The notes under the pieces are model-generated. The model had not been told where the DNA came from, searched no databases, and saw only the letters and a list, made by a program, of their open reading frames with translations. The position numbers and the translations under genes were made by a program. From Candidatus Oxydemutatoraceae bacterium (GTDB lineage: Bacteria; Pseudomonadota; Gammaproteobacteria; Poriferisulfidales; Oxydemutatoraceae), in assembly GCA_965219575.1 (NCBI GenBank), contig OZ244779.1, positions 1,804,769-1,868,768 of the forward strand: 64,000 nucleotides of DNA, read 5' to 3'. How positions within the stretch are numbered: position 1 is the stretch's first letter; each line of letters begins with the position of its first letter. This document shows positions 59,915 through 61,330 of this stretch, piece by piece.

Positions 59915-61192
59915 TCAACCGTTCCCGATCACGGACTTGCCTTTCATATAAGGTTGTAATGCAGGCGGCACGGCAACCGAACCGTCGACCCTTTGACGGT
60001 TCTCCAGTAACGCAAGCAAAGTTCTGCCTATCGCCAATCCCGAACCGTTGAGTGTATGTACGTAGTTGATCTCACCTTTGGCATTGCGCACCCGTGTTTT
60101 CATTCGTCGCGCTTGAAAGTCCAGCGTATTGCTACACGATGAAATCTCACGATAGCAATTCTCACTAGGCACCCAAACCTCTATATCGTATGTTTTAGCC
60201 GCAGCAAAGCCCAGATCTCCGCTACACAATGCAACAACCCGGTAGGGCAATTCCAAATCCTGCAATACCGCCTCGGCGTGAGACACCAGGTGTTCCAAAG
60301 TTTCCGGCGAATCTTCGGGTTTGACGATGTGTACCAGTTCTACTTTTTCAAATTGATGCTGGCGCATCAACCCGCGAGTGTCTTTACCGTACGCGCCCGC
60401 TTCCGAACGAAAGCAAGGCGTATGGCAAACAAACTGCATCGGTAATTGTTCGGAATCCAAAATGGTTTCTCTATAAAGATTGGTGACCGGCACTTCGGCA
60501 GTCGGTATCAGATAAAAATCGTTATCGCCTTGAAGTTTGAATAAATCTTGTTCAAACTTGGGCAACTGTCCGCTACCCAATAAAGTAGAGGCATTGACTA
60601 TATAAGGGACATAAACCTGACGATAACCGTGCCGTTGCACATGTAAGTCAACCATATAATCTATCAAAGCACTATGCAGCTGAGCCAACTCGCCGTGCAA
60701 TACCATAAATCTAGATCCGGAGATCACCGCCGCCGCCGCCGTATCGAGCCAACCGGCGCGGTTTGCTAAATCTACATGATCCAAAGGTTCAAAATCAAAC
60801 ACCGGTGGCTGCCCCCAACGACGGAGTTCCAAGTTGTCTTTTTCGTCTACGCCGTCGGGCACCGACGGATCGAGTCTGTTGGGCAAACCCGATAAAAAGG
60901 TATTAAACTGTGTTTTTAGTTCGTTCAGTTCGGTTTGTAATCGGTTCAGGTGTGCTTTTAATCTCTCGGCTTCGCCCAGTGCCGCCGCGGAAGATTCACC
61001 CGCCGTTTTGAGCTGTGCGATTTTACGCGATTGCGCTTTTAATTTTGCTTGCGTGGTCTCGGATTGAACTTGCAATTCTTTACGTTTCTGTTCCAGCGAT
61101 AAATAACGATTCATATCGTGGTCGGTGCCGCGACGCGCCAATTCCTTGAATACCATTTCGGTCTGATTACGCAATAATTTAGGGTCTAACAT
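59915..61192 (-). CDS. serS: Seryl-tRNA synthetase
   Basis: [45 protein letters not shown]. Confidence 0.97.
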
Positions 61193-61330
61193 GGGAATTA
61201 TACAGATAACTTGACAGACTTGTTAGACCGCCTTGCTACCCTATCTTTTTGACGCTTCATAGACCAACCGATGTTGCAATCTCCACGCCCAGTTGCGGTA
61301 TTCCCAGCCGCCATGATGTTTAATGCAGCA
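61193..61330 (-). ncRNA. Putative omegaRNA overlapping the tnpB 3' end
   Basis: Inferred from TnpB biology; GGGCGTGGAG...hairpin...TGAAGCGTCAA segment follows NAALNI. Boundaries uncertain. Confidence 0.45.

Follow-up and report, generated by a model that had tools for sequence, protein, structure and literature searches.

The question raised by this locus is where the guide of a TnpB omegaRNA lies when the tnpB gene is bounded by inverted repeats and its element ends directly against another gene. The element lies in a 64,000-nucleotide (nt) stretch of DNA from a Candidatus Oxydemutatoraceae bacterium (GenBank assembly GCA_965219575.1, contig OZ244779.1, positions 1,804,769 to 1,868,768 of the forward strand), hereafter called the window, in which positions are counted from its first letter. 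The ATG of serS (61192-61190), encoding seryl-tRNA synthetase, directly abuts the right end of this tnpB-only element. The initial annotation had left two placements for the guide: (a) the scaffold ends at GCGTCAA and a fixed guide, AAAGATAGGGTAGCAAGGCG, travels inside the element, or (b) the scaffold includes the terminal repeat, and the start of serS acts as guide. The minus-strand sequences that it quoted do lie where it put them (GCGTCAA ending at 61249, AAAGATAGGGTAGCAAGGCG at 61248-61229, the repeat at 61212-61193, and the serS ATG next to it). Of the two placements, the comparative analysis supports the second: the omegaRNA scaffold probably spans the right inverted repeat, with the guide supplied by flanking DNA, here the start of serS. 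The features on which this reading turns are the following.

61193-62451, minus strand: tnpB-only element, 1259 bp, bounded by perfect 20-bp inverted repeats
62432..62451, minus strand: left terminal inverted repeat, GGGAATTATACAGATAACTT on the minus strand, pairing with the right repeat
61212-61193, minus strand: right terminal inverted repeat, AAGTTATCTGTATAATTCCC, pairing at 20 of 20 nt with 62432-62451
61198..62406, minus strand: tnpB open reading frame (ORF), 402 amino acids (aa) plus stop
61173..61192, minus strand: predicted guide, AUGUUAGACCCUAAAUUAUU, serS codons 1-7, the first 16-20 nt of flank, with the length taken from other TnpBs
59915..61192, minus strand, same strand as tnpB: serS, its start codon touching the element and its N-terminus conserved in 4 of 4 congeners

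The predicted omegaRNA scaffold and the probable position of its guide

Right ends from many genomes were aligned as 92 distinct sequences, each with 10 nt of flank (loci L156 and L159 were left out). Columns 164-177, which run to the last C, have an information content of 1.0-2.0 bits, and past that C it falls to 0.03-0.57 bits, a drop that coincides exactly with the outer tip of the inverted repeat; the flank after the right end was unconserved among copies. Such an alignment of homologous 3' ends had been proposed in the initial annotation, and in addition to this boundary it revealed a conserved, covarying structure. RNAalifold, unaided, recovered stems 1 and 2 with double changes at 7 of 10 pairs; a third helix and a pseudoknot were placed by eye, and all four helices were then counted over the 92 sequences. 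In this four-helix structure 92.2% of 1916 cells were paired, against 36-51% with the partners slid, and the covariation score was 0.339, against a maximum of 0.090 for slid partners; none of 500 shuffles reached the observed values. Together, the end of conservation at the repeat tip and the fold of the scaffold point to the flank as the source of the guide. The parts of the predicted scaffold in the window copy are listed below.

61311-61307 with 61299-61295, minus strand: stem 1 (GCGGC/ACCGC) with loop CUGGGAAUA; alignment columns 6-10 with 18-22, 95.2% paired
61305-61300, minus strand: predicted 5' strand of the pseudoknot, GGGAAU in the stem-1 loop
61289-61285 with 61255-61251 (GCGTC), minus strand: stem 2, 97.0% paired
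61284-61256, minus strand: stem 3, a variable hairpin enclosed by stem 2
61204..61241, minus strand: stem 4, a long hairpin that draws its 3' arm from the right inverted repeat (inner and middle part)
61198-61193, minus strand: predicted 3' strand of the pseudoknot, AUUCCC, the last 6 nt of the right repeat

Compensatory change is seen in both of the automatically recovered stems. In stem 1, pair 8:20 is CG in 61 sequences, GC in 29, and GU in 2. In stem 2, pair 28:116 is GC in 62 and CG in 30, and pair 32:112 is UG in 38, GC in 33, and UA in 7. The second of these stems bears directly on placement (a), as the GCGTC at the proposed end of the scaffold is its 3' strand. A fixed internal guide of 20 nt (61248-61229), following GCGUCAA and aimed at a mobile element or phage, does have points in its favor: GAAGCGTCAA is the most conserved motif of the region, with columns 109-118 almost invariant; the stretch after it varies among subfamilies; and the TCAA is reminiscent of the right-end cleavage site of IS608. 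We nevertheless regard an internal guide as very improbable. The compensatory pairing of GCGTC with an upstream strand corresponds to the position of stem 2 in the ISDra2 omegaRNA and not to a scaffold end, and the proposed guide consists of a linker plus the 5' arm of stem 4, which belongs to a conserved hairpin common to the copies. Among copies that are 14-20% apart overall, the 20-mer is itself conserved (identical in copy c3, with 2-4 mismatches in three others). The genome and virome search that had been suggested for it gave no exact match in a viral contig collection and, in the source genome at up to 4 mismatches, found element copies only, barring one 4-mismatch match at 257410.

Stem 4 is the part of the predicted fold that would bring the inverted repeat into the RNA. 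Its segment forms a single hairpin with z < -2 in 73 of the 92 sequences (median 13 pairs), and the hairpin is kept though its sequence varies among subfamilies; the outer pairs covary, 127:164 being CG in 55, GC in 14, UG in 10, and UA in 3. Because G-U pairs are among those present, the pairing is likely to take place in RNA rather than in DNA. A different use of the same nucleotides would be for the inverted repeat itself to serve as guide, directing TnpB to transposon ends for excision or for attack on sister elements. The repeat is found at both ends of every copy, and the hairpin model leaves about 8 nt of it (61203-61196) unpaired after stem 4 in the window copy. Against this, stem 4 takes up the inner and middle repeat and the stem-1 loop is complementary to the repeat's last 6 nt, leaving some 3-5 unpaired nt, too short for a guide; every copy would, moreover, become its own target, and the target-adjacent signal described below lies in the flank and not within the element. 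On these grounds, use of the repeat as guide seems very unlikely.

The pseudoknot would close the scaffold immediately before the flank. Over the alignment 93.8% of its 552 cells are paired, with the middle pair AU in 46 sequences, CG in 18, GU in 7, UG in 4, and other combinations in 17, and the centroid fold of the window sequence alone holds both the pseudoknot helix and stem 4. Several observations weigh against the proposed structure, the pseudoknot in particular. Taken singly, the window sequence folds no more stably than its shuffles (z 0.34), and Rfam gave no family match at E values up to 1. On the TnpB tree (90 rows), the A-U to C-G switch of the pseudoknot corresponds to one independent event when well-supported branches are counted and to two when all branches are, too few for a p-value. 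The 17 sequences that break the middle pair include 16 with U-U, mostly copies from one Rhodothermales genome, and the remaining five pairs are nearly invariant. A slide of -1 keeps 80% of the pseudoknot cells paired, owing to the GGG and CCC runs. The loop GGGAAU also encodes Gly-Asn and equals the terminus of the left end, so that other constraints on it are possible. The pseudoknot prediction thus draws chiefly on the conserved complementarity of its strands and on where they lie rather than on repeated covariation, and the case for stems 1, 2, and 4 is far better.

In the arrangement that we propose, the last ~119 nt of the element would encode the omegaRNA scaffold, wholly overlapping the end of the ORF. 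Its parts would follow one another in the order stem 1 with one pseudoknot strand in its loop, stem 2 around stem 3, stem 4, the second pseudoknot strand, and the guide. The right repeat would have a double role, its inner and middle part serving as the 3' arm of stem 4 and its AUUCCC pairing with the GGGAAU loop. The guide would be read from whatever DNA follows the element, here the beginning of serS (AUGUUAGACCCUAAAU..., nt 1 to ~16-20). TnpB would form a ribonucleoprotein with this RNA and cut copies of the site that are free of the element, whereupon repair may restore or spread the element.

Two further sequence features at the right end were evaluated. A 9-nt complement to the serS start, GGTCTAACA (61229-61221) at the apex of stem 4, was dismissed as chance level: it occurs in 1 of 108 elements, with a null expectation of 0.006 per element and about 0.7 expected in all. 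A promoter and terminator scan gave no evidence of a signal, with 4 promoter-like sites where 3.3 would be expected; among these, CTAACA-18-TATAAT (61226-61197) points out of the right end.

The TnpB protein

Judged by its sequence matches, the window protein is a member of the TnpB family. It matches the Pfam models HTH_OrfB_IS605, OrfB_IS605, and Cas12f1-like_TNB (PF07282, PF01385, PF12323), all over their cut-offs, scores 202 bits against the NCBIfam model guided_TnpB (cut-off 100), and aligns with chains of the ISDra2 TnpB structure across residues 6-376 (E 2.5e-25). Seven residues, D184, E266, D357, C328, C331, C347, and C350, are invariant among 15 aligned family members; by position, the first three are assigned to the RuvC D-E-D triad and the four cysteines to a zinc finger. 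The ratio of nonsynonymous to synonymous divergence (dN/dS) is 0.12-0.17 in all 10 pairs of tnpB copies in the source genome, by which measure purifying selection acts on all five. In 8 of the 10 copy pairs, the part of the ORF that overlaps the predicted scaffold has diverged less at synonymous sites than the body of the ORF. The stop codon, UAA at 61200-61198, falls inside the right inverted repeat, 5 nt ahead of the serS AUG.

An IS1595-type element and its copies

The source genome of the window (G000; 2.37 Mb, one contig) holds 5 intact copies of the element, 4 miniature derivatives of 140-226 bp, 1 decayed copy, and 2 solo ends. The other 4 intact copies are 80-86% identical in DNA to the window copy and have ORFs of 402-405 aa. 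Similarity among the copies begins at the left inverted repeat (62432..62451), and the distance from repeat tip to repeat tip is its exact extent. Of the 61 related genomes searched, 21 (the source genome counted) hold relatives, with protein identity as low as 36%; relatives are also present in metagenome-assembled genomes (MAGs) titled Candidatus Porisulfidus, Arenicellales, Rhodothermales, Caldilineaceae, Dadabacteria, and Thermodesulfobacteriota, among others. With several copies in one genome and relatives in others, the element is not a chance feature. The family is present in MAGs of at least 7 phylum- or class-level groups, and several record titles point to sponges; this suggests horizontal spread of the tnpB-element family within one habitat.

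Ends of the family have the form GGGAATTATATAC.../...GTATATAATTCCC, or the variant ...AAGTCCC; 16 of 72 tnpB loci had no recognizable end pair and were excluded from the analysis of ends. At 108 distinct insertion sites, a perfect 8-bp target duplication was found in 48 and a one-mismatch duplication in 14. For two copies, c2 and c4, the sister genome G003 has a site without the insertion, at which the two flanks overlap by 8 and 7 nt; the G003 site corresponding to copy c5 is rearranged and uninformative. The element is best interpreted as a non-autonomous transposon of the IS1595 type that carries tnpB. It is non-autonomous because tnpB is the sole long ORF between the ends; a DDE transposase is not encoded there. 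Two other affiliations were considered and rejected. An IS200/IS605 element is ruled out by the perfect 20-bp inverted repeat and the 8-bp duplications at 62 of 108 family sites; the protein scores 163 bits with the NCBIfam IS200_TnpB model, under its cut-off of 425, and no search was made for Y1 TnpA. An IS607 element is ruled out by the inverted ends and the duplications, and the IS607_TnpB model gave 82.5 bits against a cut-off of 350.

Among the smaller relatives in the source genome, three miniatures (G000:C1:396851-397074, 1149330-1149527, and 2197522-2197747) retain the predicted omegaRNA scaffold in full, beginning with stem 1 and ending at the repeat tip; they resemble omegaRNA loci that have been described as stand-alone or "ghost" loci in OMEGA and Fanzor systems. 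The fourth (G000:C1:421896-422035) begins inside stem 3. The decayed tnpB element (G000:C1:663666-665504) has internal deletions and carries about 1.2 kb of foreign DNA between 664187 and 665402.

Candidate transposase partners

Candidates for mobilizing these elements were found in the same genomes. The source genome contains three copies of a 1348-bp insertion sequence (IS) that encodes an IS1595-family transposase (PF12762; NF033547, 194 bits); the outer 13 nt of its ends are common with the tnpB elements, and it makes 8-bp duplications. In the sister genome G004, an IS and copy c5 have the same 24-nt ends, without a mismatch, and in a second sister genome, G001, the ends of an IS differ from those of the G001 tnpB elements at 2 of 24 positions. 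Across genomes, the transposase is present in 18 of the 21 TnpB-positive and 8 of the 40 TnpB-negative ones, genomes that are kin and not independent. Likeness to the IS1595 family (NCBIfam NF033547) includes ends that begin GGGAATTATATAC, 8-bp duplications, and autonomous copies with the same ends in the source and sister genomes; the difference is that the window element holds tnpB where the IS holds its transposase. One point tells against this affiliation as far as the source genome is concerned: no transposase gene was found there between ends that match past 13 nt. Taken together, the shared ends suggest that the tnpB family is probably moved in trans by transposases encoded elsewhere.

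A second IS1595-family element is present in the source genome at G000:C1:257678-258091 and seven other places. It is 747-771 bp long with a 226-aa open frame, and its 8 copies, mostly with 8-bp duplications, have ends (GGTACTTGACTAGTTTAGGGAG) unrelated to those of the tnpB element.

Flank bias and a candidate target-adjacent motif

If the guide is read from the first flank base, then the target at a site free of the element is the 8-bp duplication plus the right flank, and a target-adjacent motif (TAM) should lie just 5' of the left duplication. At that position, -9, the 62 sites with an 8-bp duplication of at most one mismatch have G in 43, A in 17, T in 2, and C in none. The mirror position, +9, has A in 21, C in 13, G in 10, and T in 18 of the same sites. 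From a transposase acting on symmetric ends, a symmetric preference would be expected. Eighteen autonomous IS1595-type copies with the same ends have A in 7, C in 6, T in 3, and G in 2 at -9, so that a purine is found there in 60 of 62 TnpB elements versus 9 of 18 autonomous copies (Fisher p = 9e-6). Nine other elements of the source genome (copies, miniatures, and the decayed copy) all have TA at -10/-9. From these flanks we infer that the purine (TA in the subfamily of the source genome, and never C) is the TAM. C is the last base of the repeat, and at the repeat tip it would protect an occupied site from the element's own guide.

Two observations count against this assignment: the signal extends over 1-2 nt, under the 4-5 nt of known TnpB TAMs, and the window copy itself has neither a target duplication nor TA at -10/-9. 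A broader reading, in which the IS1595-type TnpB is a homing or retention nuclease with the -9 purine as TAM, the duplication plus flank as guide target, and the final C of the repeat as protection of occupied sites, is one that we put forward tentatively, with the odds somewhat against it. Insertions might then, with the same reservation, persist or spread mainly where the TAM precedes the target, and the tract shared by two genomes described next might be a cut-and-copy footprint between lineages about 10% diverged. It is likewise conceivable, if doubtful, that the serS copy is an exception without duplication or TA, fixed since serS is now transcribed and translated through tnpB.

One copy is shared by the source genome and G003 (L039, G000:C1:229776-231034, and L019, G003:C1:1278980-1280238) at 99.4% identity. 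To the left of it, 1400 nt of flank are 99.6% identical; to the right, identity is complete as far as +37, after which divergence is about 10%, and other flanks compared between the two genomes are 91-94% identical. The sharp change in identity past the right end indicates that a recent recombination tract ends there. The tract could be a footprint of homing, as a single case; a second shared insertion (L061 and L042, in G001 and G004) showed no clear tract boundary.

The serS junction

The upstream flank of the window copy is the leader of the neighboring gene.

62452..62510, minus strand: native serS leader with CTATAAT box at 62503-62497; the element now lies between this leader and serS

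In the uninserted congeners G003 and G004, the leader (...agctactat[ga]a[at]aaa[gt]) stands immediately before ATGTTAGACCC, and the same is true of G001 downstream of its own insertion. The leader, with its conserved CTATAAT box, is a putative promoter. Relative to the empty sites in G003 and G004, the window element sits precisely where the serS leader meets the ATG; the insertion neither duplicated nor removed a base, and its two flanks are contiguous in relatives. Because the leader lies upstream of the left end and the tnpB stop precedes the AUG by 5 nt, serS is probably expressed through tnpB, co-transcribed and translationally coupled with it. In all four DNA runs analyzed, contigs cross both junctions and none skips the element, although contigs can hide rare variants. 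G001 carries an independent insertion of the family (L178/L060, G001:C1:431457-433300; 74% protein identity to the window TnpB) in the CTATAAT box of serS, about 50 nt upstream of the ATG, with the duplication CTATAATT; the ~60-nt leader has thus been struck in two species.

This setting raises the possibility that the conserved structure is real and yet yields no working guide RNA in the window copy or its lineage, for instance because the element is frozen and kept for serS expression. Consistent with that view are the missing target duplication and TA motif, the lack of a fully matching transposase among those found in the source genome, the age of the copies there (80-86% identical to the window copy), the tnpB stop 5 nt before the serS AUG with the leader upstream of the element, and the presence of both junctions in 4 of 4 DNA runs with no contig free of the element. 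Several observations speak against it: all five ORFs are intact, with dN/dS of 0.12-0.17 and with D-E-D residues and zinc finger retained; in 8 of 10 pairs there is constraint on synonymous sites where the ORF tail overlaps the scaffold; and the G-U pairs of stem 4 suggest that RNA, and not DNA, is what pairs. We consider a nonfunctional guide RNA unlikely.

The same junction could instead suggest that TnpB has been co-opted as an RNA-guided regulator of serS, binding the serS start via the flank guide in the manner of TldRs, which are nuclease-dead proteins derived from TnpB (PMC13622181). The guide would indeed correspond to the opening codons of an essential gene, and the insertion seems to be fixed. 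In contrast to TldRs, however, the window TnpB has intact catalytic residues; the base beside the element at the would-be TAM position is C, which is found there in 0 of 62 sites; and the same architecture recurs at more than 100 unrelated sites. A regulatory role of this kind is therefore highly unlikely, and membership among the TldRs proper is refuted by the retained catalytic residues and by the multi-copy, mobile nature of the family. A scaffold spanning the right repeat and a guide taken from the flank thus stay the favored account of the window copy.

Comparison with known systems and implications

The initial annotation held that either placement of the guide would be unusual, which overstated the case, as TnpBs in DDE-moved, inverted-end transposons (PMC10691335) and a Fanzor scaffold that spans the right repeat (PMC10432273) have both been published. 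In the main text of Altae-Tran et al. (2023, PNAS, PMC10691335), TnpBs are described in inverted-end transposons moved by the cut-and-paste DDE transposases; solo TnpBs, whose ends are those of elements with a transposase, are presumed to be mobilized in trans, and the transposon end is stated to fall within the guide-adapter part of the omegaRNA. The likeness to the window element is that TnpB is flanked by symmetric inverted ends and that its 3' end comes close to the transposon end; the difference is that this main text names IS630 only (branch DDE-6, of DDE-1 to DDE-6). The fold with a pseudoknot at the repeat tip and the purine 8 bp off the end were worked out here and not drawn from that account. 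A literature search judged by titles and abstract openings found no TnpB-in-IS1595 arrangement, which the supplements of PMC10691335 may list.

For SpuFz1 of Spizellomyces punctatus, Saito et al. (2023, PMC10432273) demonstrated experimentally an omegaRNA scaffold that spans the right repeat, with a variable guide of 14-15 nt beyond it. As presented there, Fanzor1 elements resemble the window family in being bounded by inverted repeats, in having conserved bases outside the left end, which in Fanzor1 correspond to the TAM, and in having gene-less "ghost" copies that keep the RNA end; unlike the window family, they are eukaryotic, encode a larger protein, and belong to another transposon superfamily. 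Moreover, the conserved bases of Fanzor1 touch the left repeat, whereas those of the window family lie 8 bp away, past the target duplication.

The TnpB-omegaRNA of ISDra2 from Deinococcus radiodurans offers a structural reference: according to the structural description in Nakagawa et al. (2023, PMC10097598), its second pseudoknot strand is found immediately upstream of the guide, at -6 to -2. As far as that description extends, the two systems share the protein family and, with the fold predicted here, the order of the RNA parts, a scaffold of similar size (116 nt versus ~119 nt here), and a non-conserved C-terminal tail of the protein whose coding sequence overlaps the RNA. In contrast, ISDra2 has no inverted ends, no target duplication, a Y1 TnpA (a tyrosine, HUH-type transposase), and the TAM TTGAT. 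The window element has IS1595-type ends, an ORF that reaches to 5 nt from the element end, and a longer stem 4.

By this comparison, the arrangement appears to match in kind what is already known from DDE-associated TnpBs and, functionally, from Fanzor elements. What is added here is an explicit predicted fold in which the inverted repeat is both the 3' arm of stem 4 and a pseudoknot strand, a flank bias specific to TnpB elements, and a duplication-less copy wedged before an essential gene. The position of the guide would thereby be answered for a whole element family that is widespread in sponge-associated bacteria of several phyla, and one inverted repeat would serve as transposase substrate and as guide-RNA scaffold alike. 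For these compact nucleases of ~400 aa, the probable placement fixes where a programmable guide would be attached for testing, and the contrast between the flanks of TnpB elements and those of autonomous IS copies provides a testable handle on what use an RNA-guided nuclease may be to a cut-and-paste transposon that leaves a break behind.

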